Assembly: GCA_964497635.1 (NCBI GenBank)
Contig: CAZCDB010000001.1
Coordinates: 1 to 57,210, forward strand
Direction of reading: 5' to 3'
Source of the DNA: an uncultured Planctomycetia bacterium
Lineage (GTDB): Bacteria; Omnitrophota; Gorgyraeia; 2-02-FULL-51-18
Length of the DNA: 57,210 bases
The first letter of the stretch is position 1, and every line of letters begins with the position of its first letter. Below the pieces are notes generated by a model. That model searched no databases. It saw only the letters and a program-made list of their open reading frames with translations, and had not been told where the DNA came from. The position numbers and the translations under genes are program-made. Shown piece after piece: positions 3,001 to 44,776 of the stretch.

Positions 3001-6000
3001 CACATCGTTTGCGTTCACTCACTCCTATTGAACTAAATCGAGAGATCCGGCTTCACAGTTCCAAAGATTTAGCGCTTTCCATCCTTTTGGCTCCGGGTAA
3101 ATTTTTTCTCAACCTCATAGATCGACTGATGGATATGTTATCACCGGATCAGCTGAGCATATTGATGACTACCAAACAGCGTTATAGCGAAGGAGATGCG
3201 GTATTGGTTCAGGTCAGAGTGCTTGAGCAATCGATCATCCCTAAGGAGACTTATATTGCGTGGTTATCCGATTACGGCACCGGTTGGATTCAAGGTAGAG
3301 TCGGAGAGGTCAAAAGTAACGGCAGAGTCCGGATCTTTTTTGGACCTCTGGACAACGATAAAGCTCCCAATCTAGAACTTGATGGAAGCAGTCAAAGTCT
3401 TCAAAAAGCCCCTCGTAATGCGAGGGGTGCCCGGTTGGCGGCGCTTCCTGTGATTGGTGAATTTACGCTCGCGACTGTTCAGAGTCTTGCTGAGGAAAGT
3501 ATTAATGTCCGAACCTATCCTTCAAATGACAAGACCAGTCAAACTTACTTCATCACCACTCAGATGAATCCGGAAAGACTGGAGTATGTTGTGAAATACA
3601 CAAGAAGTGCAAATGGCGATTACTTGGTCCTCTTTCCGCCGAATGGTTTATTAAGAGATCAACAAGGAGAAAAAACAATCTATAAAAGAGATGTTGATGG
3701 CGAAGAATTTGATGGTGTCGTATCGGCTCTTGCGCAGGCGGCCAAGAGAGAGTTGCGTACAGATAATCCAGATGTGCCGGCCATATTATCTTTAAATGAT
3801 CTCATACCCATTGTTGGTGGAGACGGGGCGAGTTTTGAGAGATTTCGGGCGTCTTTTAATGGAGATGGTTTTAACGTTCGTACACATTCAAAGGACACCT
3901 ATAACCTTGTTGTCATTTTTTATGGTACCAGCGAACCTTATTTTGTTTTAAATTTTATCCAAAAAGGAACTCGTTTTGATAGCACACCTGTTGCAAGCCA
4001 GATCTTGCCCTATATCAATCAAGGACACGATAGACAAAATGCTTGGTTTATGCGTGGGCATATGGTTAATAAAATAGAGGGTAGGGAAGTTTACAGGATC
4101 AATGGCGCACGCTTGTCCGCTGATTTTGATGAGCAGATGGATGCCTTGGGAATCGCCCCGCGTCAGGTGACTCATATTTTTCTTAATGATGCTTCCGACA
4201 TTATTCGCCCGCTTTTGGAGAGTGCCATCCGAAGCAGTTTTCCTGAGATTCCAGAGGCGAATATCGTTGTCACCCAGACACCTGCTGACGCGCAGGAAGC
4301 AGTGACTAGACTTTTAAGTCAGCTAGAGACCCCAGGTCAGCTTCTAGTCATCACGGATGTAAATCCATATTCAGCTACAGGAAATGGCTATGATGTGATC
4401 AGGCATCTCAGAGCTTTGGAAAATGAACGTGGTCCTGTAGACCTAGACCAGAGAAATCTCGCTGTGATTACCAGCGTTAACTTCAATGAGACAGCGATTA
4501 TTGCGGAACAAAATAGTAGAAAAGATCTTTTCGCGCTTTATGTTGCAAAAGACAATACCCCCCAACTTTTAGACGCATTAAAGACTAGATTAAGCTCTCC
4601 TGCCGCTGCACGGTTGGCAGCAGCTATTACACTGGATGATAAGATAAAAGCTCTTCGCGAGATCTATTATGGGCTTGATCAAGCACAAATGAGTGACAGT
4701 AATGAAAAGCTTCGCGCACAAGAAGAGGCTATTCGCAAAGGACTTTCCGGGATCGTGAACCAGTCCATCATCAATGTTTTAGTCTCATACAAAAGAGGTA
4801 AAAAAAATACACAAGAAGCGGAAGATTCCTCTGCTAACCATCTCATACGATTGATCGCTCTCAGCTTGATGCAAGCAAAAAAAACTTATGATGTCTCAGA
4901 TCTATTGATGCAGGCTCAAGCGTTAAGAGATAAGAGTGAGCAATTAGATCGCCGGGGGGCTCTTTGGTCGATTAGAAATTTGAATCCCAGAGACCTTGAT
5001 GAAAAGGAGCGCGAAGATGTTGTCCGGGTTTTGCGCGATATCATTGCTGGTCCTGATCAGGATTCGCTGGTTACCGATGATGCTAAAAGCGCTCTTTCTA
5101 GGTCTGTTTCTACTGGTGCAGAAGTTTTAGCGCCAAAAATTATCGACGACACGATTGATTATTTTATAGAGCACCCGAGCAGTGATGGCTATCTAATGTT
5201 TATCCGGCTTGGTCTACGTGCACAGAAAGCTTATCTCCACGTTAAAGAAGCCTTTAGAAGGACTAGTAGGGAGCAATCAAGACACTTGTTGTTACAGGCT
5301 TTATTTGCTGTGACTCCAAATCCAGCCGCAGATTTGAAATCTTACCTAACCAATAGTCAATATGACGCTAGCGGATGGCACGATGATACAGATGGTCGAT
5401 ATTCTTTCGAAAGATCTTTTCTCAATCTTGCTACTTCACATAAGGATCAAGCCAGCGATATTTTATCGGATTACATCAAGGATCAGAAAAATCATTTGGA
5501 ATTGAGAGTTATGGCCGCGCAGGCTCTGGGGGCACTGAAGGAAGATATAGCTTCCTCTTTGCCTGTATTGATTGATTTGCTTGATGAGGTCATGCAGATA
5601 GACAGAACCAGCTATTCATATGCCTTAGAAACCAACTCTAAAATCGTGATTTTTGCGGTGAGTCGAGTCGGCAAAAATAATCCAACTGTTATCGAGAGAT
5701 TTTCTCGTCTTTTGGACGATAGCAATTCCCGTGTTTTGCGAGCAACTTTGGAAGCGCTATCGTACTTGGGCGAACAAGCCAAGCCGCTACTTCCAAAATT
5801 AGAAGTTTTGGCTGTTCGAACAGATCGTTCAGATTTTAAAGATGAAACTTTAGCAACGATTGAGGCTATTAAGTTTGGAAGGATTCGGGATGTATTAATT
5901 GCCGCACGCTTGGCGACGGTAAAGACACCACTCACAGGTTTGCAGCATCGAAGCATTTTTAAAGTGGGAAAAAATCGATTTAAAATAGAATCAGTCAGTG

Positions 6001-7577
6001 ATAACGGGATTACTTTTAAACTGAATGGTAAAGACGGTGTGGCAAAAATAAATACGGTGATTCAGTTGGGAGGAAAAGAAGCCGAAAATAAAGCGACCAT
6101 TCGTATTCTATCGATCAAAGATGGTCTGGTAGATATCGAAGTCGATGCTCCCGCTGAGAAAATCGTAGAGCCTCTTCTTGACAATGAAACTCACTTGATT
6201 GGTAACGGTGCAAAAGAAAATCAGGTAAAAATTTTTGTAAAAACATCTGGGGAGCAGCACGTGATAACGATACGCAATCAATCCAATGCCGCAGTTGCCA
6301 CGATCACAATCAATGCCGCGATCATGGATATTGCAAAACGTGACTTGGTTTTAGACATCGTTGAACAATTGGATAGGGCATTGGCTGGAGTTCCAATAAC
6401 CAGCATGACCTCTTCTCAATATAAGGAAAAAATTGAGCCTGTATTCGAAAAGCTCAAGAGAAAACCAGGCGCTCGTTTAGCGCAAGAGATTTCACCAAGG
6501 CCGTTCAATCTTTTTGGGGCATCTGCAGAACAAACAGAGCCTTTAGATTTGAATCTGGCCGGCGCTCGAATCGCTGCGGCGAATTCAAATAGTATTTCGG
6601 TGGCCGAAAGACTTAAGATTTTGATTTTAACATCGTTTGCAGCGCTGAGCTTTGCGACTTTTGCCTTTGCGGCAGACGGACCCATGACCACGGCCACTAT
6701 TTCGACTGAGGAGGGAGGGCTCTCTCAAGTTCTTACGTTGTCTCCGGGTGATTTGGAAGTTGTTCGAAACGGGGGACTTTTGGACACCCACCATCAAGCT
6801 TTACGCGCCGCCAGGGCTCAAGCCGATACGCTTTTGGAAAAAGCTCTCCCGGTTTGGAGCGATGCTTCTTTCTGGGATGGCTTTGAAACCGCTTTGGCTT
6901 CGACAACTGGAGATCTTAAGAATCTGGATCTTTTTATCCCGCTGTCCGTGGCCTCTTCCAGCGTTGATTTAAAAAAGACGGTGGGCAAAGTGGTAAGCAA
7001 ACTAGAAAAGTTGGGCGCAAAAAGAAATATCAAATTAACTATTTATCTGACCACCAACGGCCAAGACACACCTTTTTATCTGGCTCAACAGATTCAAAAA
7101 ATAAACAGCAGCTTGCCCAATCTTCGCCACGCCGAGGTCCGCTTTCTGGCTTCCCGTCGTGGGACTTTGGCTCAGGATGCGGTGAACACGATCCTTTCTC
7201 GAGCGGATGGGGAGGCTTCCCTTCTCGCCGGCCGGACTCGGGCGATGATCCTTGCGGAAGGTTCGACTGCGGAGCAACTCTCCTCCAGCTTAGGTCCCGT
7301 GACAGATCTTTATGGTAAAAACGTCTCCATCGCAGGCGTTCAGATGCCCGCAACGGAAGCGGAAGCTGAGCTCGCCTCTTACTCCATCGCCAATATGGTT
7401 CTTGTTTCCGCACAAAAAGCTCTGGGCTTGGATCTCTCGATTCTCCCCGCCAGCACTTTTGGGTTTTCGATCGAGCATTTAAGTAACCTCGGCGAAGTTG
7501 TTGTTTTCCGCCTCTTAAGGCTTGATGAAGAACTCAACGCCTTAAAGCTCGCCCGCCAAGCCGAAATCGCCGCTTAA
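3..7577 (+). CDS. Giant multidomain protein, probably 5'-partial (2524 codons visible). Contains two receiver-like domains, HEAT-like repeats and one C-proximal hydrophobic helix.
   Basis: The frame is uninterrupted from nt 3 to TAA at 7575-7577. The ORF track starts at GTG 66, but codons 3-65 in the same frame have no stop, and no purine-rich SD precedes 66. The gene therefore most likely continues upstream of the window. Domain calls come from motif reading of the translation (see sub-features). Confidence 0.85.
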   Translation, partial: KNSPLDGWSLRFQNQQGKPTTVPLNNLNGYGDTPLEVDSVLELVRTNVPAGFLRIQNNTNPRVPFVVSGDPDEVIRWVIGLRISAPDTLIYAPRIGMSPMFFDAPSRPLGEIRRTDTVFVDENGFLHLIADAQNEEWKPILIGYKRVDVSDLPTTAIPDDRGARLSSITKDMVISYGKERQEPTTVKVTVKIELLTAVAAPPKFELFYRVSGLEDFLSLGTIENPSPADMGELLSQFEGTRFNPSSLPTLEEKIAKMMRDFKVAVNSGARLALTSDLENAATLASANLFSEFTFNVPGQGSFTISEKGANLMELSMDKTADLPARALIKRHETGHVGSFLMAPFSGRQVRYLKKTVSGREVTIDLGKLPGAAPWKPAGHVGDEPYVLHGFLRNARWTLEPGSTDSSATFSVKNSDIPVSITDIDGADIPEIKTLADIFGDLQYQVTYQWADGKFGILPSVTNLGTTEATTELNHHLTLDLADSDAGLSEWSAQIDAVKYRRMNDNKMPKRSPLARVRSGGEYDFREPVALDRPIEVGLAALEDTDGIVEGRFIHKGGETISLSWDAATFPQTLLWAPVGLRGFEGRAGFQPKSSSPGAAGLEKAGIKDANLLHLKPNQTITGKIEIGRALVTVAAARLSSASDSEPEIPSLDDQIEAWKKNHATAHAVSRILVNEDENIPRMLLEFVTKNVLGLEPKEDSDKVILALKSEDAWDAFQSGSFDFIVTDINTKSDINGIDLIRHIREQEARDQVQQPVMILVQSSTLKPAMKGLDLKEFGPDTFYVEKPAGDAIQKLFAADVVSAVTFEAKDVSIGQVNEVIDQAIGAAIKYADKKQMTAIRVNFNGNEIGRHTRPFNKQILSSSVINHISDHVRSTREVSIYDIHTENATVVITSKPESERTPKPKEVRPDLWTRISRFASKLWKSAGARLVDKKTLVRWTSLLDNEPLFHRYSSVWKAHDDLEGARQRLFSLLKPGEEYDPNLRVTLTPLTSPNAAISNAHRLRSLTPIELNREIRLHSSKDLALSILLAPGKFFLNLIDRLMDMLSPDQLSILMTTKQRYSEGDAVLVQVRVLEQSIIPKETYIAWLSDYGTGWIQGRVGEVKSNGRVRIFFGPLDNDKAPNLELDGSSQSLQKAPRNARGARLAALPVIGEFTLATVQSLAEESINVRTYPSNDKTSQTYFITTQMNPERLEYVVKYTRSANGDYLVLFPPNGLLRDQQGEKTIYKRDVDGEEFDGVVSALAQAAKRELRTDNPDVPAILSLNDLIPIVGGDGASFERFRASFNGDGFNVRTHSKDTYNLVVIFYGTSEPYFVLNFIQKGTRFDSTPVASQILPYINQGHDRQNAWFMRGHMVNKIEGREVYRINGARLSADFDEQMDALGIAPRQVTHIFLNDASDIIRPLLESAIRSSFPEIPEANIVVTQTPADAQEAVTRLLSQLETPGQLLVITDVNPYSATGNGYDVIRHLRALENERGPVDLDQRNLAVITSVNFNETAIIAEQNSRKDLFALYVAKDNTPQLLDALKTRLSSPAAARLAAAITLDDKIKALREIYYGLDQAQMSDSNEKLRAQEEAIRKGLSGIVNQSIINVLVSYKRGKKNTQEAEDSSANHLIRLIALSLMQAKKTYDVSDLLMQAQALRDKSEQLDRRGALWSIRNLNPRDLDEKEREDVVRVLRDIIAGPDQDSLVTDDAKSALSRSVSTGAEVLAPKIIDDTIDYFIEHPSSDGYLMFIRLGLRAQKAYLHVKEAFRRTSREQSRHLLLQALFAVTPNPAADLKSYLTNSQYDASGWHDDTDGRYSFERSFLNLATSHKDQASDILSDYIKDQKNHLELRVMAAQALGALKEDIASSLPVLIDLLDEVMQIDRTSYSYALETNSKIVIFAVSRVGKNNPTVIERFSRLLDDSNSRVLRATLEALSYLGEQAKPLLPKLEVLAVRTDRSDFKDETLATIEAIKFGRIRDVLIAARLATVKTPLTGLQHRSIFKVGKNRFKIESVSDNGITFKLNGKDGVAKINTVIQLGGKEAENKATIRILSIKDGLVDIEVDAPAEKIVEPLLDNETHLIGNGAKENQVKIFVKTSGEQHVITIRNQSNAAVATITINAAIMDIAKRDLVLDIVEQLDRALAGVPITSMTSSQYKEKIEPVFEKLKRKPGARLAQEISPRPFNLFGASAEQTEPLDLNLAGARIAAANSNSISVAERLKILILTSFAALSFATFAFAADGPMTTATISTEEGGLSQVLTLSPGDLEVVRNGGLLDTHHQALRAARAQADTLLEKALPVWSDASFWDGFETALASTTGDLKNLDLFIPLSVASSSVDLKKTVGKVVSKLEKLGAKRNIKLTIYLTTNGQDTPFYLAQQIQKINSSLPNLRHAEVRFLASRRGTLAQDAVNTILSRADGEASLLAGRTRAMILAEGSTAEQLSSSLGPVTDLYGKNVSIAGVQMPATEAEAELASYSIANMVLVSAQKALGLDLSILPASTFGFSIEHLSNLGEVVVFRLLRLDEELNALKLARQAEIAA
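2010..2394 (+). other. CheY-like receiver (REC) domain 1 inside the giant ORF
   Basis: The REC landmark residues appear in order: RILVNEDE (beta1 acidic pair), FDFIVTDINTKSDINGIDLIRHIR (beta3 Asp plus alpha3), PVMILVQSS (beta4 Ser) and FYVEKP (beta5 Lys-Pro). Confidence 0.6.
4167..4592 (+). other. CheY-like receiver (REC) domain 2 inside the giant ORF
   Basis: HIFLNDASD (beta1), LLVITDVNPYSATGNGYDVIRHLR (beta3 Asp), LAVITSV (beta4 Thr/Ser) and YVAKDN (beta5 Lys). Order and spacing match REC domain 1. Confidence 0.55.
5490..5890 (+). other. HEAT/PBS-lyase-like helical repeats inside the giant ORF
   Basis: Repeated pattern of the type RVMAAQALGALKEDIASSLPVLIDLLDE ... SNSRVLRATLEALSYLGEQAKPLLPKLEVL, typical of HEAT_2-type repeats. 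Confidence 0.5.
6615..6674 (+). other. Single hydrophobic helix, a TM anchor or internal signal-peptide-like segment, in the giant ORF
   Basis: KILILTSFAALSFATFAFAADGP: a basic residue, about 18 hydrophobic residues and an AFA-AD motif like a signal peptidase I site. It is the only such segment in the visible 2524 aa. Confidence 0.6.
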
Positions 7578-39079: not shown

Positions 39080-40825
39080 ATGAAAAAGGTAATTTTAATT
39101 TTTTCGGCCCTTTTCTCCATTATCTTTGTTGCCACCCTTATTTTTATAGCCACTTTTGATGTCAACCGTTACAAGGGGCAAGTAGAACAAGCCGTTGAAA
39201 AAGCGGTGGGAGAGCCTGTCACGATTGGTCGGATAGGGCTGCAGTGGCAGGGTGGGATTGTTTTGCAATTATCCAAAGTGGCAGTATCTCACCCACAGGA
39301 TCCGGCAAAAGCTCCAGGTATTTTCTTGGAAAATTTATTGCTCAGACTTGAGTTTTTGCCCTTATTGAAAAAGTCGCTTCAGGTTTCTTCGATTGTGCTC
39401 GATCGACCCTCGATTGAGATTTCTCGGGAAGTGGATGGGTCGATTCGGGTGGGAGGTCTTGATTTTTCTAAACAGGCTCAAAACCAACCCAAAGGTTTTC
39501 CTGAGACCGTTAACAATGCGCATGGAAGCTCTTCTGTTTCCTGGTCCATAGACTCAATTAAGATTCATGAAGGACGCCTAATTTTGCGGGATTCCTCACG
39601 TGTTAGCCCGTTGACGCTAGAGGTACAGAAGATCAATATTCACATCCCTCATTTTTCACTGACACAACCCTTCTCATTTGAAGTCGCCGCCTCGGTGCTA
39701 AGCCAACAACAAAATATCCGGGCCTCCGGCAGTGCTCTGCTAAAAAGTTCGGGGACACTGGTGCTGCGCTCATTGGAAGTGGCCACTGATTTAAAGGATC
39801 TGGATTTTGAAAAAACTCTTCAACTGCTTCCGAGTCTCAAGGGATTGCGTCAACGCCCCGAAGGGGTGATCGCGATCAAGCTAGATGAGTTTGAGCTTCC
39901 CCTAGAGGCAACCTCTCCTCGCAAAGGACAACTGGAAATAAAAGATGGCAAAGCCATTTTCAAGTCATTTCCGATTGAAAATATGAATTTGACCGCTCAA
40001 GTGGAGGGTGCAAAAATAAACATCAACTCCTTGACCGGGATCGTTGCCGGGGCTCCGACAGAGTTATCAGGAACTCTTTCCGGGTGGGGTCCTCAGGCCT
40101 CATTGACTCTTAGAGGAGAGATCCAAAATCTTTCTCTGGAATATCTCATGAGAGAGGTCCATCCGAATGCACCCAGGCTCCAAGGACACTTGACGTTGGC
40201 GCTCGAGGGTCAGGCTCGTGGCACTTCTTGGGAAGATATTTCAAGATCGTTGGATGGTCGTGCGCGGCTTCTGATGAGTGATGGGGTGCTTTTAAACTAT
40301 AATATTTTAAGAGAAATCGTTCAAAAAATCTCGATTATACCCGGAGCGGAAGCGGCCCTGCAGGCCAATTTTCCTCAAGCTTATCGTTTGAGACTTCAGG
40401 ATCGAAGCACTGTTTTGAGGCCTGTGGACTTATCTGCCAACATTGTCGATGGTGTGCTATATGTGGATCCCTTGAGAGTGGATACGGATTTTATTTTGAT
40501 TTACGGGGCCGGAGGGCTTGGGCTGGATCGAAATTTAAATATCAACGCGAACCTGATTTTAAATCAAGAAATATCACGCGCGATTGTCGGAGCATTTAAC
40601 CCGCTTCAAGTCTTGGGTAATAACCGGGGGGAGATCGTGATTCCAGTGGCGGTTTCAGGGGAGCTTCCGCAAGTCAAGATCACCCCAGACTCTAAATATA
40701 TTGCCTCTAAGTTGCTTGCCGGGAAAACCCAAGAAGTCATTCAGGATCTTATTGCTGACCCCAAAGGGGGATTGGATAAAATAGAAGATATTTTTAAGAA
40801 AAACCTCAAAAACCTTAACATCTAA
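39080..40825 (+). CDS. AsmA-family outer-membrane biogenesis protein
   Basis: N-terminal TM, then FDVNRYKGQVEQAVEKAVGEPVTIGRIGLQW, typical of the AsmA N-terminus. Long beta-rich body. Confidence 0.75.
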   Translation: MKKVILIFSALFSIIFVATLIFIATFDVNRYKGQVEQAVEKAVGEPVTIGRIGLQWQGGIVLQLSKVAVSHPQDPAKAPGIFLENLLLRLEFLPLLKKSLQVSSIVLDRPSIEISREVDGSIRVGGLDFSKQAQNQPKGFPETVNNAHGSSSVSWSIDSIKIHEGRLILRDSSRVSPLTLEVQKINIHIPHFSLTQPFSFEVAASVLSQQQNIRASGSALLKSSGTLVLRSLEVATDLKDLDFEKTLQLLPSLKGLRQRPEGVIAIKLDEFELPLEATSPRKGQLEIKDGKAIFKSFPIENMNLTAQVEGAKININSLTGIVAGAPTELSGTLSGWGPQASLTLRGEIQNLSLEYLMREVHPNAPRLQGHLTLALEGQARGTSWEDISRSLDGRARLLMSDGVLLNYNILREIVQKISIIPGAEAALQANFPQAYRLRLQDRSTVLRPVDLSANIVDGVLYVDPLRVDTDFILIYGAGGLGLDRNLNINANLILNQEISRAIVGAFNPLQVLGNNRGEIVIPVAVSGELPQVKITPDSKYIASKLLAGKTQEVIQDLIADPKGGLDKIEDIFKKNLKNLNI

Positions 40826-40844
40826 TAAAAAAGGAGGGTACATT

Positions 40845-41141
40845 ATGAAGGGGTTTATGGAATTTATTCGGGCGCAGGGTGTGGTGGGTTTGGCGGTTGG
40901 TTTTATTTTGGGCGGCGCTGTGTCGAAGGTGGTGGCTTCTCTTGTTGGAGATTTGATTACCCCTATCTTAGGGATTGCTTTGGGAGCCGCACAAGGTTTA
41001 AGAGAGGCACATCTAATGCTTGGTCCCGCCAAGATTACCTATGGCAATTTTATAAATACGATGATTGATTTTTTAGTCATCGCCATGGTGGTTTATTTTG
41101 GGGTGAAAGGTCTAGGTCTTGATAAGCTGGATAAAAAATAA
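40845..41141 (+). CDS. mscL: Large-conductance mechanosensitive channel
   Basis: FMEFIRAQGVVGLAVGFILGGAVSKVVASLVGDLITPILG and FINTMIDFLVIAMVVYF. It is a short (98 aa) version. Confidence 0.85.
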   Translation: MKGFMEFIRAQGVVGLAVGFILGGAVSKVVASLVGDLITPILGIALGAAQGLREAHLMLGPAKITYGNFINTMIDFLVIAMVVYFGVKGLGLDKLDKK

Positions 41142-41679
41142 CGGCAAAGTGATTGCTGCAGGGATTTATTTTTTCCTGCTAACGAGCGCATTGTCTTTTG
41201 CCGGTGAAAACAAGGAAAATCTAAACGGGCAGCAGAGGCTGCCCGTTTTTTCATCCAAACCGTCTTACCACGGTCTTTTTGATGAAGAGTTAATCGGGAT
41301 GAAGGATCTCTTCCGGCTTCTTTTTCAGGAAAAGAAAAAATTTTTGTTACTGGATGCGCGTGGAAAACAAAGTTATGACACGCTTCATCTCAAAGGAGCC
41401 AAGCTCCCGCTGGGTCATGATTTTTATTGGCAGGAAGATTTGTTTCGTAGGGGGATTGTCAAGACCGTCCTGGATCGAGACAAAGAGCTTGAGAAGGCCA
41501 TGAAGCGGTATCCCAAAGACACGGCGATTGTGACCTACTGCAACGATGATTGTCATGCCAGCGCGGTCCTTGTGCTGCAGTTGAAGCGTTTGGGTTTCAC
41601 CAATGTAAAAGCAATGATCGAGGGGATACAGACCTGGCAAAAAGAAGGTTATCCGGTCGCCTCAAGCGTTTCTGGGTAG
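41119..41679 (+). CDS. Periplasmic rhodanese-domain protein
   Basis: TTG start (alternative GTG at 41149). Signal peptide ...IAAGIYFFLLTSALSFA-GE. Rhodanese fold LLDARGKQSYDTLHLKGA ... YCNDDCHASA ... GIQTWQKEGYPV. Confidence 0.7.
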   Translation: MISWIKNNGKVIAAGIYFFLLTSALSFAGENKENLNGQQRLPVFSSKPSYHGLFDEELIGMKDLFRLLFQEKKKFLLLDARGKQSYDTLHLKGAKLPLGHDFYWQEDLFRRGIVKTVLDRDKELEKAMKRYPKDTAIVTYCNDDCHASAVLVLQLKRLGFTNVKAMIEGIQTWQKEGYPVASSVSG

Positions 41680-41714
41680 TGATGCCATAGGCTATGGTAC
41701 AATTCCTTTTTAGC

Positions 41715-41801
41715 GTGCCCGTAGCTTCCGCCTGATCGGAGATCAGGACGGATCCGTCCTCGCCCATAGGCGAGGCGGACAATTGATAAGGATTAGGGCA
41801 C
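41715..41801. repeat. Structured element E1: tRNA-Arg-like acceptor stem enclosing four-way-junction module M1
   Basis: GTGCCCGTAGCT (41715-41726) is identical to the first 12 nt of tRNA-Arg, and GGGCAC (41796-41801) can pair with it. Inside is closing stem TCCGC/GCGGA with hairpins CTGATC-GGA-GATCAG, GACGG-AT-CCGTC and CTCGCC-CATA-GGCGAG. Confidence 0.7.
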
Positions 41802-41821
41802 GACAATATTCAAATAGTCTT

Positions 41822-41895
41822 GTGCCCGTAGCTCAATTGGATAGAGCGCTTCCCTCCGAAGGAAGAGGTTGATGGTTCGACCCCATTCGGGCACA
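41822..41895 (+). tRNA. tRNA-Arg (anticodon CCG)
   Basis: Hand-folded cloverleaf: acceptor GTGCCCG/CGGGCAC, D arm GCTC-AATTGGATA-GAGC, anticodon arm CTTCC-CTCCGAA-GGAAG and T arm GATGG-TTCGACC-CCATT. No encoded CCA. Confidence 0.9.
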
Positions 41896-41905
41896 CGGTT
41901 TTAGC

Positions 41906-41934
41906 TTGGACCATCCTAGGTCTTTGGCTATAAT
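41906..41934 (+). promoter_or_regulatory. Near-consensus sigma70 promoter inside the tRNA island
   Basis: TTGGAC (41906-41911), 17-nt spacer, TATAAT (41929-41934). It would drive element E2 plus tRNA-Lys and downstream genes. Confidence 0.55.
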
Positions 41935-41957
41935 AACACCCTTTAGCATGCAAGGGC

Positions 41958-42101
41958 TTTTGCGCCGATAGCTCAGTTGGTAGAGGTCGCTAAGCCTCTG
42001 CTTAGCGACACTTCGCGCCGGCATTGATAGCCGGCTTGTCGCAGCTTCCGCCTGCTGCTTTTGCAGCAGGACGGACCCGTCCTCGTCTATGACGAGGCGG
42101 G
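41958..42101. repeat. Structured element E2: 28-nt copy of the tRNA-Lys 5' part, two perfect hairpins, and the second copy of module M1
   Basis: 41958-41985 is identical to 42143-42170 (leader TTTT, acceptor 5' strand and D arm). Hairpins GTCGCTAAG-CCTCTG-CTTAGCGAC (41986-42009) and GCCGGC-ATTGATA-GCCGGC (42017-42035). M1 copy at 42047-42101. Confidence 0.7.
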
Positions 42102-42146
42102 GACTCTAGACGTAGAACTAGGTTTTAGATTTAGGTAAAAGATTTT

Positions 42147-42219
<73 letters not shown>

Positions 42220-42220
42220 C

Positions 42221-42346
42221 AAATTTCGATTTTGAAGGCCCATCTGCTTCGTTGCGATGGCAAGTTGTTTGTGCGACGCTATTTCCATAGCGTCTCCGCA
42301 CAACTTGCCATCGCGCCTCGCATCTGAACCTTCAAAATCAAAATTT
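42221..42346. repeat. Structured element E3: ~126-nt long hairpin (family M2) directly 3' of tRNA-Lys
   Basis: Outer 18-bp stem AAATTTCGATTTTGAAGG / CCTTCAAAATCAAAATTT (1 mismatch). Perfect 15-bp inner stem GCGATGGCAAGTTGT / ACAACTTGCCATCGC. Apex GACGCT-ATTTCCAT-AGCGTC. The 31-nt core 42269-42299 is identical to 42853-42883. Confidence 0.75.
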
Positions 42347-42365
42347 GGAAATGACTAAGAAATAG

Positions 42366-42447
42366 GGGCGGATGGCGAAACTGGCAGACGCGTCAGCCTT
42401 AGGAGCTGATGGGGCAACCCTTGGAGGTTCGAGTCCTCTTCCGCCCA
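42366..42447 (+). tRNA. tRNA-Leu (anticodon UAG)
   Basis: Acceptor GGGCGGA/TCCGCCC, anticodon arm TCAGC-CTTAGGA-GCTGA, a long variable arm and T arm GGAGG-TTCGAGT-CCTCT. No encoded CCA. Confidence 0.9.
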
Positions 42448-42645
42448 TGATTTTAGTTGCCGAAGAGGACTCGAAGAGAGTTTCGTCGCCGTTGGTAAAA
42501 GTCGACTGTCCAGTGGACAGTCGACAATTCCTTCGACGAAACGAATGGCCGACCGGAGTCGAGCCGTCTAAGAGCGGAGCGACGTAGTCGCGTAGCGGGA
42601 AGTTTGGCGAGACGTAGGCGCCAAGTCCTCTTCCGCCCATGATTT
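42448..42645. repeat. Structured element E4: ~176-nt hairpin-rich insert ending in a 22-nt direct copy of the tRNA-Leu 3' end
   Basis: AGTCCTCTTCCGCCCATGATTT occurs at 42432-42453 (T arm, acceptor and 6 nt of trailer) and again at 42624-42645. Between them: an 11-bp perfect hairpin GTCGACTGTCC-AGT-GGACAGTCGAC (42501-42525), nested in TTTCGTCG/CGACGAAA, plus further hairpins at 42547-42565 and 42579-42591. Confidence 0.75.
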
Positions 42646-42727
42646 GCCCATTTCGTTGCAGGCGAGGCGCAGATCAGGTATATTACAGGCTAAGATTTTT
42701 TAGGATGAGTTGATTTAAAAGTTTCAA

Positions 42728-42803
42728 GCGGGAGTAACTCAGCGGCTAGAGTGCCACCTTGCCAAGGTGGACGTCGAGGGTTCGAATCCCTTCTCCCGCT
42801 CCA
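42728..42803 (+). tRNA. tRNA-Gly (anticodon GCC), with encoded CCA
   Basis: Acceptor GCGGGAG/CTCCCGC, D arm ACTC-AGCGGCTA-GAGT, anticodon arm CCACC-TTGCCAA-GGTGG, T arm GAGGG-TTCGAAT-CCCTT, then T-CCA. Confidence 0.9.
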
Positions 42804-42807
42804 TTTA

Positions 42808-42927
42808 TTTTTGTCGGAGCAGGCCCATCTACTTTGTTGCGGGCTCGTTCGCTTGTGCGACGCTATTTCCATAGCGTCTCCGCGCTCAGTCGCCCGCGTC
42901 GCGTATCTGGGCCTGCTGCGACAAAAA
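42808..42927. repeat. Structured element E5: ~120-nt long hairpin (family M2) directly 3' of tRNA-Gly
   Basis: Outer 20-bp stem TTTTTGTCGGAGCAGGCCCA / TGGGCCTGCTGCGACAAAAA (1 mismatch) and inner GCGGGC/GCCCGC. It has the same 31-nt apex core TTGTGCGACGCTATTTCCATAGCGTCTCCGC as E3. Confidence 0.75.
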
Positions 42928-42958
42928 TTAAAAAGAATTCTAAAAGGAAAGCTACTTA

Positions 42959-43423
42959 ATGAAAATCGTTGAGTTTTTGAACGAAAAAGCAATCACGGCC
43001 AATATTAAATCAACTAAAAAAGAAGAAGTCCTTCGAGAGCTTGTGGATATTTTGGCGAAAGCCGAAGGATTCAGAAATAAAGAAGAGCTGATCAAAGTTT
43101 TGATCAACCGCGAGAACCTGGGCAGCACAGGCATCGGCCAGGGAGTGGGGATTCCTCACGCAAAAACAAATGTCGTGAAGAAATTGGTGGCGGCTTTTGG
43201 GCTGTGTCCTCAAGGGGTTCATTTTGACGCGTTGGATGGCGAACCGGTTTATATCTTTTTTCTTTTAGTGGCTCCGGAAGATTCTGCAGGCCCGCATTTG
43301 AAGGGGCTTGCTCGCATCTCACGCCTTCTCAAGGACAAGTATTTCAGGGAGTCACTCAAGTCTCTCTCAGACGAAAAAGCCATTCTTAAATTGATTCGTG
43401 AGGAAGATGCTAAGAAACCCTAA
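42959..43423 (+). CDS. ptsN: PTS EIIA(Ntr)-type regulatory protein
   Basis: 154 aa. RENLGSTGIGQGVGIPHAK (phosphorylatable His context of the fructose/mannitol EIIA family) and FFLLVAP. Confidence 0.8.
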   Translation: MKIVEFLNEKAITANIKSTKKEEVLRELVDILAKAEGFRNKEELIKVLINRENLGSTGIGQGVGIPHAKTNVVKKLVAAFGLCPQGVHFDALDGEPVYIFFLLVAPEDSAGPHLKGLARISRLLKDKYFRESLKSLSDEKAILKLIREEDAKKP

Positions 43424-43507
43424 GGGTTTTTAGTGCTTCAAACGTTTATCGGTTTGCCAATTTTAGCCGTTTGATTTACCAAAAATTATTTTCTTAGAGG
43501 AATTTCT

Positions 43508-44776
43508 ATGGGTCTTTTTAAGTGGCTGTATCCGGGGATGAGGATTAAGCGTTGGGTGACGCTCTGTTGTTTTGGGGTCATTCTCTGCTCAATCGGTTTT
43601 GTGCTTGCTCTGACGGATATTCAGCGTTCTTACGGAAGTTTGATTGTGCTTCTTGGTTTTGGGGTGGTGGCAGTCAGTATCCGAAAAATCATCAAGTCGG
43701 TGGTGACGGTGCTTCTGCCCGAACGTGAGAATGAATTTGTCAATATCATGTACCAGAAGCGGTATTTGGAGCGGGGTCCTCGGATTGCGGTGATCGGGGG
43801 CGGGTCTGGTCTTGCCGTTCTTTTGCATGGTTTAAAAGAGTTTACCTCCAATATCACGGCGGTGGTGACGGTCGCCGACGATGGAGGCTCTTCGGGGCGT
43901 CTGAGAGATCAATTTGATATCCCGCCTCCGGGAGACATTCGAAACTGTCTGGTGGCTTTGGCGGATGCCGAGCCCTTGATGAGTGATCTTTTTCAGTTTC
44001 GTTTTAAAGAGTCAGGGGCTTTTGAAGGGCATAATTTTGGGAATCTTTTTATTTTGGCGATGCTCAAAGTCACAGGTGATTTTGAGAAGGCGATTCGCGA
44101 GTCTTCCAAGATTTTGGCGATTCGCGGGCGGGTGGTGCCCTCCACTTTAAAAAGAGTGACATTAGTGGCGCAGTTCGCCGATGGAAGTCAGGTGGCCGGA
44201 GAGAGTCATATTTCAAAAACTCCCGGGAAGATTCAAAGGCTTTATTTGCAGCCAGCCAATTCTTCAGCCGCTGAAGACGCTCTTTTTGCGATAGAAAATG
44301 CGGACGCGATTGTGATCGGACCGGGAAGCCTTTATACGAGTCTTTTGCCGAATCTTTTGATTGAGGATTTGTCGGCGGCGATTGCGCGCTCACGGGCTCC
44401 TAAGATTTATATTTGCAATGTGATGACGCAGACGCACGAAACAGACAATTTTACAGCGTTTGATCATGTCAACGCGATCGCGGAGCATTCTCACGCGGAT
44501 GTATTGAGTCATGTGATCGTCAATAACGGCAAGATTCCTTCGGTGATTTTGGAACGATACGCCCAAGGGGGTTCGATTCCGGTCAAGGCGGATACGGAAA
44601 AAATTTGTGCGCTGGGGTATCAGGTGATTGAAGACAATATCATTAACACTGCGGATATTGTGCGTCACAATCCGCGGCGTGTTTCCAAATTGATTTTAGA
44701 AATCATCCACGCGGATAAAAAGAAGAACCCGAGTGAGAAAAAACAACGTAAAACGAAGTTGCTTGAAACAGTCTAA
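43508..44776 (+). CDS. yvcK: YvcK/CofD-family (UPF0052) protein with an N-terminal two-helix membrane extension and a Lys-rich tail
   Basis: RIAVIGGGSGLAVLLHGLK, VVTVADDGGSSGRLR and GPGSLYTSLLPNL are YvcK hallmarks. They are preceded by ~90 aa containing WVTLCCFGVILCSIGFVLAL and LIVLLGFGVVAVSI. Confidence 0.8.
   Translation: MGLFKWLYPGMRIKRWVTLCCFGVILCSIGFVLALTDIQRSYGSLIVLLGFGVVAVSIRKIIKSVVTVLLPERENEFVNIMYQKRYLERGPRIAVIGGGSGLAVLLHGLKEFTSNITAVVTVADDGGSSGRLRDQFDIPPPGDIRNCLVALADAEPLMSDLFQFRFKESGAFEGHNFGNLFILAMLKVTGDFEKAIRESSKILAIRGRVVPSTLKRVTLVAQFADGSQVAGESHISKTPGKIQRLYLQPANSSAAEDALFAIENADAIVIGPGSLYTSLLPNLLIEDLSAAIARSRAPKIYICNVMTQTHETDNFTAFDHVNAIAEHSHADVLSHVIVNNGKIPSVILERYAQGGSIPVKADTEKICALGYQVIEDNIINTADIVRHNPRRVSKLILEIIHADKKKNPSEKKQRKTKLLETV

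Follow-up and report, generated by a model that had tools for sequence, protein, structure and literature searches.

Hairpin elements behind tRNA genes of Omnitrophota: a probable family of non-autonomous palindromic insertions with outer stems that appear to copy the insertion flank

Introduction

Two long hairpins with an identical core, hereafter E3 and E5, stand behind the genes for tRNA-Lys and tRNA-Gly in the window (the whole 57,210-nt stretch of Omnitrophota DNA analysed here), which raises the question of whether they are RNA structures retained for a function in the transcript or copies of a mobile element. A sequence-only reading of this locus had proposed both: a structured RNA whose long helix is maintained by covariation, or a small mobile palindromic element that inserts into the loops of pre-existing hairpins. 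With moderate confidence, we favour a modified form of the second. E3 and E5 would be two copies of a non-coding, non-autonomous and strand-specific palindromic insertion element specific to Omnitrophota, the outer stem of which would consist of the native flank and a template-switched copy of it.

Results and Discussion

Two hairpins directly abutting tRNA genes

Two, and only two, copies of the 31-nt core TTGTGCGACGCTATTTCCATAGCGTCTCCGC are present in the window (Table 1), where chance would produce none even with 3 mismatches allowed, and the 5' arms (GGCCCATCTGCTTCGTTGCG in E3 and GGCCCATCTACTTTGTTGCG in E5) are likewise the only two matches of their kind in the window. E3 folds with a minimum free energy of -61.4 kcal/mol (z = -11.3) and E5 with -65.6 kcal/mol (z = -7.1); no shuffled sequence equalled either of them. 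Sequence search and folding thus confirm the earlier description of two self-complementary hairpins with a common core at tRNA 3' ends, including the perfect inner stem of E3 and the single mismatch in each outer stem. The helices nevertheless reach further out than had been described, to the pairs 42220/42347 in E3 and 42804/42931 in E5, so that each hairpin spans ~128 nt. Since these outermost pairs start immediately after the discriminator base A42219 and after the CCA at 42801-42803, respectively, both hairpins abut their tRNA with zero gap. At the ends of the E5 unit, G and G are opposed as a mismatch.

Table 1. tRNA genes and parts of the two elements, in window coordinates.
Feature	Position	Strand	Basis or remark
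tRNA-Lys(ctt), CCA not encoded; E3 abuts its 3' end	42147..42220	+	ARAGORN; Rfam tRNA 74 bits
E3 5' outer arm CAAATTTCGATTTT, probable native flank downstream of tRNA-Lys, outside the transposed unit	42220..42233	+	homology to L079 empty site
E3 conserved unit, ~100 nt: arms GGCCCATCTGCTTCGTTGCG ... CGCGCCTCGCATCTGAACC, middle helix, apex	42234..42333	+	alignment A1; covariance model 121.6 bits; fold
E3 middle helix, perfect 15-bp stem	42254-42268 / 42300-42314	+	inverted-repeat search
E3 copy of 31-nt core	42269..42299	+	exact match; loop variants known across copies
E3 apex hairpin GACGCTAT-TTCC-ATAGCGTC	42275-42294	+	minus-strand loop GGAA, a GNRA tetraloop
E3 3' outer arm AAAATCAAAATTTG, probable inverted copy of native flank 42220-42233	42334..42347	+	one C·A mismatch (42227/42340)
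tRNA-Gly(gcc), CCA encoded at 42801-42803; E5 abuts its 3' end	42728..42803	+	ARAGORN; Rfam
E5 5' outer arm TTTATTTTTGTCG	42804..42816	+	T-run as in empty sites; GTCG common to L070 copy
E5 conserved unit GAGCAGGCCCATCTAC ... GTATCTGGGCCTGCTG	42817..42918	+	alignment A1; covariance model 129.6 bits; fold
E5 copy of 31-nt core	42853..42883	+	exact match
E5 3' outer arm CGACAAAAATTAA, complementary to 42804-42816	42919..42931	+	one T·T mismatch; inverted-repeat search; fold

The 1400 nt around the elements are 100% identical in L002 and 99.9% identical in L003, which belong to other assemblies of the same population, and an assembly artefact is therefore excluded. Logan contigs of the source organism break within the E5 core, four of them (L004-L007) ending at 42858-42859 and another (L008) beginning at ~42872.

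A search against Rfam 15 (cmscan, E <= 1, positions 40500-44000, both strands) returned nothing on E3 or E5, in agreement with the earlier failure to name a family for them; within the tRNA cluster it retrieved four tRNAs, a Plastid-ycf2 match antisense on tRNA-Lys and a weak mir-3150 match across the 3' end of tRNA-Leu. Readings of the antisense hairpin as group II intron domain V, SRP RNA or a 6S-like RNA find no support in Rfam and disagree with it in the arrangement of motifs. Coding potential was also rejected: a visual reading of the frames of the conserved core showed loop variation unlike that of synonymous sites, and the 71-aa gene predicted here overlaps tRNA-Leu.

A low-copy family in Omnitrophota

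Far from being confined to these two places, the element belongs to a family of at least 33 members, which occupy unrelated loci in several Omnitrophota species and come without exception from Omnitrophota MAGs or metagenomes. Seventeen of 52 pattern matches are true copies, in MAGs labelled Omnitrophota or 'uncultured Planctomycetia'; the other 35 are chance matches in coding DNA of other phyla, with different loops. Metagenomes yielded 10 further copies, and 5 were added later: one apex-deleted copy in locus L080 and four found with a covariance model, among them a sister subfamily that has the same arms and a different apex. Copy number seems low (2-4 exact-core copies per MAG), a point against the preferred reading. 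The relaxed apex pattern had no match in viral contigs, leaving a phage origin without evidence. A full-text literature search on repeats or hairpins of Omnitrophota/Omnitrophica brought up nothing relevant, and a general one on MITEs at tRNA genes or stop codons was uninformative.

The transposed unit measures ~100 nt. Its conserved arms read CCYCATCTRC-NNN-GTTGC on one side and CGCGCCTNGYATMTGRG on the other, its middle helix alternates 2-bp Watson-Crick steps with 2x2 mismatches, and its apex is an 8-bp hairpin. In alignment A1 variability peaks in the ~12 outermost columns of either side, and the centre is invariant. One subfamily, S1, carries the same outer arms at no fewer than 9 unrelated loci; these arms have moved together with the unit, and none of the loci shows a fresh copy of the flank. 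S1 copies have CTTTTTG after an inner stem.

Orthologous sites with and without the element

In five relatives whose PtsN is 85-92% identical to that of the window (L071, L072, L073, L077 and L079), the spacer between tRNA-Gly and ptsN is 24-56 nt long and free of hairpins. Of 8 orthologous loci, 3 (the window, L031 and L074) carry the element behind tRNA-Gly(gcc) and 5 do not. Behind tRNA-Lys(ctt), no copy of it is present in L072, L073, L077 and L079, and L031 holds a different element, of family C. Two protein-coding junctions vary likewise: between icd and lipA, L051 carries the element where L075 and L076 have a spacer of just 6 nt, and between ppx and tmk it is present in L010, L017/L009 and L080 but not in L081. 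Because the orthologous sites are empty and compact, the element is an insertion and not a tRNA-processing signal. A conserved tRNA 3' trailer processing element can be discarded on the same grounds, the tRNA-Gly(gcc) site being empty in 5/8 loci and the tRNA-Lys(ctt) site lacking the element in 5 of those examined.

These comparisons uphold one half of the mobile-element proposal, namely a small mobile palindrome with filled and empty alleles at orthologous sites, but not the other half, insertion into the loops of pre-existing hairpins. The empty sites (5 after tRNA-Gly, 4 after tRNA-Lys, 2 at icd-lipA and 1 at ppx-tmk) are short hairpin-free spacers, and the outer stems do not pre-exist in them as simple hairpins. 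Across all loci searched, S1-type arms without the unit were seen only as two partial 3'-arm duplicates beside full copies. Direct target-site duplications are absent from each filled/empty comparison made (L051 against L075/L076, the window against L079/L077, and L010 against L081); what the same pairs display is an inverted copy of the upstream flank. The sequence-only reading had pointed to conserved termini with target-site duplications as typical of an ordinary MITE, and the copies have neither. A classical MITE derived from a DDE-transposase IS was accordingly rejected.

The ppx-tmk copies bear on how such insertions age. Those of L010 and L080, two loci with a derived C-terminus in common, differ at ~2 of 85 unit positions although the synonymous sites of their flanks look saturated. 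So few differences argue for purifying selection or homogenisation over the neutral decay of a dead insertion, which counts against the preferred reading.

The outer stem as a flank and its inverted copy

At three loci the outer stem is, judging by the aligned sequences, the native upstream flank together with a new inverted copy of it. The 5' arm of E3 is homologous to the flank of the L079 empty site (CAAGTTTGGTTTTGAGACGG, 14/19 identical), with CAAATTT common to L031 as well, and the 3' outer arm of E3 is missing from the empty sites in L072, L077 and L079. For E5, the empty sites in L071, L077 and L079 continue from the cca with TTTTT, matching the T-run of its 5' arm, and the L070 copy has ATTTTTCGTCG between cca and GAGCAGG. 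The arm GCGCTCAAAT in L051 encodes a native conserved C-terminus (...KALK*; 14 of 120 orthologues end exactly in DAIIKALK), and across the unit from it stands its perfect complement, ATTTGAGCGC. In L010, the GATAAT/ATTATC pair includes native codons.

Flank copying also changes the meaning of the helix covariation on which the structured-RNA proposal rested. Double changes are indeed massive, affecting 27 of 45 helix pairs, yet one-sided G·U intermediates are almost absent; a ratio of 175 double-change cells to ~7 one-sided ones fits templated copying better than stepwise covariation of an RNA, and in the outer stem the apparent covariation is explained by the copied flank. In E3 and L034b, entire middle sections have been replaced by perfect stems; a search of the window revealed no source for the unusual inner stem of E3. 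Mismatch types in the outer arms, counted by hand as a test of strand, comprise ~6 A·C against 1 G·U on the + strand, too few for significance.

Template switching during replication is reported to create reverse-complement repeats, to fix stems and to expand inverted repeats (PMC8794818, PMC13100816). The quasipalindromes expanded in this way are recognized by adjacent reverse-complement copies, by longer and perfected stems and by multi-base 'compensatory' changes arising in a single event (PMC8794818, PMC13100816), and the flank-derived outer arms and the 175:7 ratio are the counterparts seen here. We therefore suppose that the 5' arm of the outer stem would be native flank and the 3' arm an inverted copy made at or after insertion, most simply by replication template switching nucleated by the inserted palindrome. 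Template switching is, however, a general mutational process, which leaves the conserved unit, its spread, its orientation and the stop at the tRNA boundary unexplained. Two further observations count against the preferred reading: plain template switching alone does not account for an inverted copy that reaches exactly to the tRNA boundary in 13/13 cases, and the S1 arms travel with the unit and involve no new flank copy.

Targets, orientation and a possible role in the transcript

Thirteen of the 33 copies directly follow a tRNA gene, all of them co-oriented with it (13/13), and the inverted flank copy ends 0-2 nt from the tRNA 3' end in every one. Under our assumption that 3% of sites follow tRNAs, the probability of such an adjacency is ~5e-12. 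In some 10 further copies the start coincides with the stop codon of a housekeeping gene within an operon, the genes being unrelated. Copies lie between housekeeping genes or behind tRNAs, mostly one and at most two per 8-kb locus, and of the 24 copies for which orientation could be determined 23 run in the direction of the upstream gene. The unit would insert in one orientation, a few to ~15 nt past a gene end, and strongly favour tRNA genes. A purely selfish model leaves this strict coupling to the orientation of the upstream gene unexplained, which weighs against the preferred reading.

The same co-orientation and direct abutment suit a functional cis-acting RNA in the sense transcript, for instance an RNase III site or a 3' exonuclease barrier that would shape the 3' ends of upstream RNAs as an intercistronic processing, stability or termination hairpin. 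The unit is, moreover, strongly conserved between species, the apparently old ppx-tmk insertion included, and diverged copies carry compensatory changes in the apex stem (GACGCATC/GATGCGCC in L074 and GGCGCTAT/ATAGCGCC in the second copy of L035). S1 copies, with their A5-stem-T5 shape, resemble a bidirectional terminator. Against such a role, close relatives (L071, L072, L073, L077 and L079) lack the element at the same tRNA sites, so that it is not needed for tRNA maturation; the element also follows protein-coding genes, and the upstream genes are functionally unrelated. E3 and E5 are followed directly by GGAAATG and TTAAAAAG, respectively, neither has a U-tract, and no terminator-like site was called at either, on which grounds an intrinsic (rho-independent) terminator was rejected. 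The scarcity of G·U intermediates also speaks against selection on an RNA, as does the strand preference of the fold: the sense strand, which is the one co-transcribed, folds worse in 24 of 25 copies. We consider a cis-acting RNA function unlikely. Under the preferred reading, the co-transcribed element would be a passenger hairpin.

The strand that folds and the agent of mobility

The better-built fold belongs to the antisense strand, relative to the upstream gene; it combines a GNRA loop at the apex with three tandem G·A steps. On the sense strand the middle helix is left with U·C/C·U mismatches, and the loop is UNNC rather than a stable motif. The preferred reading accommodates this asymmetry if an enzyme acting in trans mobilises the unit by recognising the hairpin of one strand. 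No gene for a transposase, reverse transcriptase or recombinase was detected in the window, where a Pfam scan of the ORFs outside the annotated 20 kb returned housekeeping functions only. In loci of up to 20 kb around the copies, we found neither a mobilising enzyme or adjoining transposase nor an autonomous parent, and no Y1/HUH protein among the neighbours examined; the lack of an enzyme or parent weighs against the preferred reading.

A more radical possibility is that the inverted copy is the signature of insertion itself rather than a later replication error. The element would move in single-stranded form, folded into a hairpin, as ssDNA or as a cDNA copied from the sense transcript (and hence the antisense strand); its 5' end would be joined to the target, and its paired 3'-OH would be extended along the single-stranded upstream flank in a rolling-hairpin or copy-back manner until halted by the folded tRNA. 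This would account for an inverted copy that begins exactly at the unit boundary, is perfect or nearly so over 9-14 nt and ends 0-2 nt from the tRNA, as well as for orientation tied strictly to the direction of the upstream gene. The GNRA/tandem G·A fold also lies on the complement of the transcript, the strand of a reverse transcript, and three further element families of the same cluster (B, C and D) also repeat the adjacent tRNA end in direct and inverted copies. Conversely, S1 copies at 9 or more loci lack a fresh flank copy, the arms are anywhere from 8 to 15 nt long, none of the copies has a linked reverse transcriptase or HUH gene, and template switching yields the same pattern with no new enzyme. 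Self-primed insertion appears improbable.

Integron attC sites invite comparison on account of the same strand asymmetry: these imperfect palindromes, 57-141 nt long, adjoin the end of the upstream ORF in the same orientation and conserve extrahelical or mismatched bases, and it is the antisense strand of that ORF that adopts the recombinogenic fold. Members of the present family are imperfect palindromes of ~100-125 nt that start at or over the upstream stop codon, and a positive GC skew on the + strand across the whole window places the folding strand on the leading-strand template. The S1 termini (...YTAAC AG ... CT GTTGG) resemble R''/R'. Beyond this the likeness fades. attC sites conserve the outer boxes, vary in the centre, form cassette arrays and need IntI, whereas here the centre is conserved and the copies are solitary, mostly one per 8-kb locus in housekeeping operons and many of them after tRNAs, with no arrays and no integrase nearby. 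The boxes (R'' RYYYAAC and R' GTTRRRY) are absent from E3 (CAAATTT.../...AAATTTG) and E5 (TTTATTTTTG.../...CAAAAATTAA), AAC/GTT is missing from other tRNA-adjacent copies too, and among the S1 copies, the only ones with TAAC...GTTGG-like ends, several read GCT for GTT. An antisense gene for a structured small RNA of ~100 nt would also agree with the GNRA loop and the tandem G·A steps; a minus-strand promoter-like site exists at 42965-42937, but it is weak, matching 9/12 positions where ~1.2 such matches are expected by chance in the region, and the 11-30 nt before the next gene leave no room for a conserved antisense promoter. We regard a single-stranded recombination site of attC type, used by a tyrosine or HUH recombinase on the antisense strand, or such an antisense RNA gene, as very unlikely.

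Relation to other palindromic repeats

Among known elements, REPIN/REP sequences and their RAYT enzymes offer a parallel to the preferred reading. They are short, non-coding, non-autonomous and lineage-specific intergenic palindromes that form hairpins of ~70-110 nt, often in operons, and an enzyme supplied in trans is presumed to recognise them in single-stranded, hairpin form. REPs, however, have a conserved GTAG head, conserved ends, a variable loop and tens to hundreds of copies. In the present family the centre and arms are conserved, the A1 consensus lacks a GTAG head, the ends are apparently locus-specific flank copies, and the few copies per MAG show a strong preference for tRNA 3' ends and a fixed orientation.

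ERIC (IRU) and the Correia elements of Neisseria (CREE) are likewise imperfect palindromes, of ~100-155 nt, in transcribed intergenic regions, where they can provide a stop codon or a terminator and, once transcribed along with their neighbours, fold into RNA hairpins. Correia elements differ from E3 and E5 in their conserved 26-bp terminal inverted repeats and TA direct target duplication, and ERIC in being enterobacterial and inserting in both orientations. We know of no report of an inverted upstream-flank copy or a preference for tRNA 3' ends in either.

Implications

The family is a new repeat family in an uncultured phylum, and it breaks short-read assemblies, as the Logan contigs ending within the core illustrate. 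It also serves as a caution for RNA-motif discovery, in that 27 'covarying' pairs can be produced by templated DNA copying and not by selection on an RNA. In the search for an enzyme or binding protein, the conserved antisense hairpin, distinguished by a GNRA loop and tandem G·A steps, could serve as a concrete bait.

Omnitrophota may harbour a new class of small 'flank-copying' single-stranded hairpin elements, in which a self-primed inverted copy of the flank would stop at the tRNA; we hold this broader proposal to be doubtful. The class would include the family of E3 and E5 (family A) and perhaps B, C and D, and may insert at the boundaries of tRNA and other genes. Were this true, insertion would produce an inverted instead of a direct target duplication, with no described bacterial counterpart, and an inverted flank copy that proved to be part of insertion itself would amount to a new mechanism of transposition.

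With this family, the ends of tRNA genes also stand out as hot spots for small elements of several kinds. Three others, B, C and D, all bearing tRNA fragments, lie in the same tRNA cluster as E3 and E5; the folding z-scores of family C are weak (-0.8 to -2.3), which speaks against a stable hairpin there.

Two tRNA-abutting hairpins belong to a lineage-restricted repeat family

The sequence-only reading had described two long hairpins with a common 31-nt core and homologous arms, one following tRNA-Lys and the other tRNA-Gly, and this description is confirmed. The core occurs at exactly two places in the window, where chance would yield none, and the homologous 5' arms of the two elements (E3 and E5) have no third place there. 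Each element forms a single long hairpin, its stability well above that of shuffled sequences (E3, -61.4 kcal/mol, z = -11.3; E5, -65.6 kcal/mol, z = -7.1), the outermost pair starting at the first base past the discriminator (E3) or the CCA (E5). Both sequences are unchanged in two more assemblies of the same population. Neither matches Rfam on either strand, and full-text literature searches retrieved no description of such an element.

Features of the tRNA cluster in the window
Feature	Position	Strand	Description
Family B	41714-41800, also 42040-42100		tRNA-like pseudo-unit upstream of tRNA-Arg; homologous module upstream of tRNA-Lys (second range)
tRNA-Arg(ccg)	41822-41896	+	
Family D	41958-42039		cloverleaf-like pseudo-tRNA without anticodon loop
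tRNA-Lys(ctt)	42147-42220	+	
E3 (family A)	42220-42347		outermost pair 42220/42347; core 42269-42299
tRNA-Leu(tag)	42366-42447	+	
Family C	42448-42645		after tRNA-Leu
tRNA-Gly(gcc)	42728-42803	+	
E5 (family A)	42804-42931		outermost pair 42804/42931; core 42853-42883

The window corresponds to the ENA metagenome contig ERZ3430527 NODE_240. The nearest named relatives of its PtsN-like and Icd proteins come from Candidatus Omnitrophica/Omnitrophota. A pattern with a constant apex stem and any loop, run against a single genome from each species, returned 52 matches, 17 of which are genuine copies (ATTNNCAT loops and homologous flanks), all hosted by Omnitrophota MAGs or by MAGs labelled 'uncultured Planctomycetia'; in one MAG of the second kind, PtsN is 92% identical to that of the window. 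The remaining 35 fall in protein-coding sequence of other phyla and arose by chance. Metagenomes supplied another 10 copies, and the viral contigs scanned contained none. A covariance model (R1), built from an alignment of 25 full-length copies (A1), was used to find diverged copies: one after tRNA-Gly(ccc) in L035 (apex GGCGCTAT/ATAGCGCC), one after tRNA-Gly(gcc) in L074, which is GC-rich (apex GACGCATC/GATGCGCC), and a sister subfamily with the arms of family A and other apex hairpins (L012:4357-4471, L051:1039-1153). A third copy from the window's own sample, at a ppx-tmk junction on a contig with the same coverage (L080:1606-1700; ERZ3430527 NODE_413), has a deletion of about 22 nt in the 3' half of the apex. 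The sequence-only reading had proposed a genome-wide search with the core; these scans carry the family far beyond two sites, to about 33 distinct elements. Family A is a lineage-restricted repeat of a unit of about 100 nt, running roughly from GAR(M)AGG to CCTKYTG/CTTTTTG, with a terminal G and G often opposed as a mismatch.

Five Logan contigs of the same organism begin within E5 (L004-L007 at 42858-42859, L008 at about 42872), four of them within the identical 31-nt core; the Logan k is 31. The ends of two CAZBIH contigs (L009, L017) also fall within one family-A element, and the repeat seems to be an assembly breakpoint.

Copies favour tRNA and gene ends in a fixed orientation

How many copies follow tRNA genes had been posed as a check on the hairpins; the count is 13 of about 33, each directly 3' of the tRNA. 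The genes concerned are Lys-ctt (twice), Lys-ttt, Gly-gcc (three times), Gly-tcc, Gly-ccc, Leu-cag (twice), Leu-caa, Arg-acg and Met. Assuming, as we do, that about 3% of intergenic sites follow tRNAs, this enrichment has P ~5e-12. All 13 lie on the strand of their tRNA (P = 1.2e-4), with 0-2 nt between the tRNA 3' end and the hairpin base (up to about 6 nt in L026). About 10 other copies start at the stop codon of a co-oriented ORF, or 11 nt inside it, and stop 11-70 nt short of the next gene. At these sites the preceding genes are operon members with unrelated housekeeping roles (prfA-prmC, lysA-dapF, icd-lipA, purH, a dGTPase gene, a dksA-like gene upstream of lspA, and ppx-tmk). One copy, in L064, clearly runs the opposite way.

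Orthologous sites exist in filled and empty forms

Orthologous tRNA clusters were retrieved via PtsN homologues. The spacer between tRNA-Gly and ptsN is filled in the window, in L031 (PtsN identity 85%) and in L074 (82%), and measures 24-56 nt in L071 and L079 (92% each), L077 (90%), L072 (88%) and L073 (85%). After tRNA-Lys(ctt), L072, L073, L077 and L079 have a spacer of 27-58 nt, L031 carries a different element (family C), and L070 carries a family-A copy with an outer arm nearly identical to that of E5. Between icd and lipA, L075 and L076 have a spacer of 6 nt and L051 has an element; similarly, in L081 the stop codon of ppx and the start of tmk overlap, and the junction is filled in L010, L017/L009 and L080. 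The comparison of empty and filled sites suggested beforehand therefore yields both alleles at all four places. The ancestral cluster was consequently compact, several insertions having been gained by that of the window, and family A is inserted DNA rather than a conserved trailer of the tRNAs. The earlier suggestion of a mobile palindromic element is borne out by this polymorphism in all but its target, a pre-existing hairpin, since the empty tRNA-Gly-ptsN spacers contain none.

No transposase, reverse transcriptase or recombinase gene lies beside any copy or anywhere in the window. In another strain, an IS1595-family transposase gene (L077/L078:160-1056) is located about 600 nt upstream of the corresponding tRNA cluster, with no counterpart there in the window.

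Outer stems are built from the flanking sequence

The outer arms derive from the flanks. To the left of the L051 unit, ...AAG GCG CTC AAA T specifies the ...KALK* C-terminus of the native protein (the exact DAIIKALK terminus is present in 14 of the best 120 Icd orthologues), and to its right ATTTGAGCGC is a perfect 10-nt reverse complement of the left flank, without counterpart in empty sites. The E3 5' arm CAAATTTCGATTTTGA aligns to CAAGTTTGGTTTTGAG, the native flank in L079, where the site is empty, with CAAATTT common to L031, so the 3' arm (42334-42347) is the new inverted copy. At the ppx junction, native codons for the conserved ...SGKI motif lie within the paired arms GATAAT(TCGT)/(ACGA)ATTATC, and the sequence past the element still resembles a displaced native ppx 3' end. 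Flank copying accounts for the observation that outer stems are unrelated between copies yet self-complementary, because each was made from its own flank. Arms, once formed, can nevertheless travel with the unit: at least nine copies of a subfamily (S1) at unrelated loci have the common arms (TAA)CAGTYTGMT/AKCARACTG(TT), and TTTTTSGTCG is common to E5 and L070 though different tRNAs precede them. Directly after the full element, L065:1095-1125 and L066:5870-5895 contain a solo second S1 3' arm, TTTTT(T)GAGCAGACTGCTAAG or TTTTTCAGCAGACTGTTAG, a tandem partial duplication of the arm.

Helix variation fits arm-to-arm copying

The helices vary almost entirely by double changes. RNAalifold predicted 45 pairs, both sides having changed in 27; paired cells reach 93.6%, versus 31-49% for slid partners, and double-change cells number 175 versus about 7 one-sided, transversion swaps included. 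In E3 and L034b the entire middle helix has been exchanged for unrelated perfect stems, and the orthologous copies of L010 and L080 differ by a synonymous ppx change, AAG to AAA, with a matching C to T in the 3' arm. This pattern is the footprint to be expected if one arm served as template for the other. Template switching during replication is documented to make reverse-complement repeats, mend stems in one event and expand inverted repeats (PMC8794818, PMC13100816). Covariation is therefore no proof of a functional RNA here: of the earlier proposal that covariation maintains an RNA helix, the paired changes stand, and their near-total excess over one-sided ones fits copying.

Family A is probably a non-autonomous hairpin element, the unit of which would be mobilised in trans and the stem of which would be lengthened and repaired by template switching. 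This reading leaves without explanation that the stem ends precisely at the tRNA boundary in 13/13 copies, a feature which a rather unlikely alternative would address, namely that the flank copy is written at insertion, the 3' end of the hairpin priming itself and being extended until the folded tRNA. Two features of the ppx-tmk copies are likewise left unexplained by the template-switching reading: the unit is nearly identical (about 2 of 85 positions differ) though synonymous sites in the flanks look saturated, and the filled/empty pattern is patchy.

The antisense strand folds better

The strand antisense to the upstream gene has the better fold in 24/25 copies (mean -61.0 vs -55.0 kcal/mol; the comparisons are not independent, as the unit is shared). 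The bias stems from the middle helix, where covarying 2-bp Watson-Crick steps alternate with 2x2 loops that differ by strand: tandem G·A in 5'-YGAR-3' context on the antisense strand, U·C/C·U on the sense strand. GA/GA occupies the three loops in 13/25, 12/25 (plus 10 AA/GA) and 20/25 copies; Watson-Crick pairs replace the outermost in five copies, and the other two only in a few copies with a remodelled middle helix. The antisense apex loop (GGAA, GGGA, GCGA, GAAA or GGTA, always opening with G and closing with A) follows the GNRA pattern, and the sense one reads UNNC. The middle sections of the two arms are near-direct repeats (GCTCAGTCGTTCGC vs GCTCACTTCTTCGC), which could alternatively be described as two putative protein-binding sites on the same strand.

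Since the strand co-transcribed with the tRNA is the worse-folding one, a sense-RNA element for processing, stability or termination appears improbable despite its covarying helix, and a terminator would further call for the U-tract that E3 and E5 lack. The bias would instead suggest that a hairpin of single-stranded DNA (or cDNA) is what is recognised, as with REP/RAYT, IS200/IS605 ends and attC bottom strands. GC skew of the + strand is positive throughout the window and most genes lie on it, so that the antisense strand is the leading-strand template. An attC-like single-stranded recombination site, which family A matches in geometry, or an antisense small RNA is very unlikely; E3 and E5 have no AAC/GTT boxes and family A forms no arrays. 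Where the ptsN-like gene begins, a weak promoter-like site on the minus strand (42965-42937, TTTTCA-17-TAGAAT, 9/12) would drive antisense transcription of E5; about 1.2 such sites are expected by chance in the region.

Family A works like REPIN, ERIC and Correia-type palindromic repeats. It differs from MITE and Correia elements in having neither conserved termini nor direct target duplication, and from REP in having no GTAG head. It departs from each of these kinds in defining features, and we file it as new among the small palindromic insertion elements of bacteria.

Other element families adjoin the same tRNAs

Every tRNA of the window cluster has a structured neighbour containing pieces of that tRNA. 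Upstream of tRNA-Arg, family B comprises its first 12 nt (GTGCCCGTAGCT), two TCCG...CGGA-framed hairpins and GGGCACG closing an acceptor-like stem (first unit: MFE -49.3, z = -5.3). A homologous module precedes tRNA-Lys (CGYAGCTTCCGCCTG...CAGGACGGAYCCGTCCTCG...CGAGGCGG); L031 has a Lys-acceptor version before its tRNA-Lys, and L073 a related one before its tRNA-Arg. Family D joins an exact 28-nt copy of the tRNA-Lys 5' end (TTTTGCGCCGATAGCTCAGTTGGTAGAG) to a 10-bp hairpin (4-nt loop) and a ACTTCGCGCCGGC-ATTGATA-GCCGGC hairpin. The same layout, made from the tRNA-Gly 5' end, lies upstream of tRNA-Gly in L031, and a near-identical unit upstream of tRNA-Lys in L077.

Family C consists of the complement of the tRNA T-arm and 3' acceptor (GCCGAAGAGGACTCGAA), a core of about 150 nt, and an exact 22-nt direct copy of the tRNA-Leu 3' end and trailer (AGTCCTCTTCCGCCCATGATTT; 42432-42453 = 42624-42645). 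Its folding z-scores are weak, and it has no match in Rfam. L031 carries a near-identical core after both tRNA-Lys and tRNA-Leu, the flanks swapped to suit each tRNA; Gly versions occur in L074 and L035 and a truncated remnant in L073, with TCGAAG(A/T)GAGCCG as the common left motif. In L074 (2184-2400), a family-C insertion behind the diverged family-A copy has a 49-nt direct repeat on both sides, made up of 16 nt from the very end of tRNA-Gly and 33 nt from the start of the family-A hairpin; C has therefore arrived later than A, duplicating both. Families A to D together show that several kinds of small element have colonised the ends of tRNA genes in these Omnitrophota, with stems that take in copies of the neighbouring gene end.

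A 71-aa gene in the source annotation (42372-42587), without Pfam hit, overlaps both tRNA-Leu and family C; it is probably not a real gene. Elsewhere in the window, a 2503-aa ORF (66-7577) without a confident Pfam domain gives only a sub-threshold response-regulator match. The best sigma-70-like promoter of the region (41907-41934, TGGACC-16-TATAAT, 10/12) lies between tRNA-Arg and the D and B units, and conservation of the TAGCTATAATAAC box extends to the region preceding tRNA-Lys in L077 and L079; given this predicted promoter and the box, the D and B units would fall in the 5' leader of the Lys-Leu-Gly transcript.
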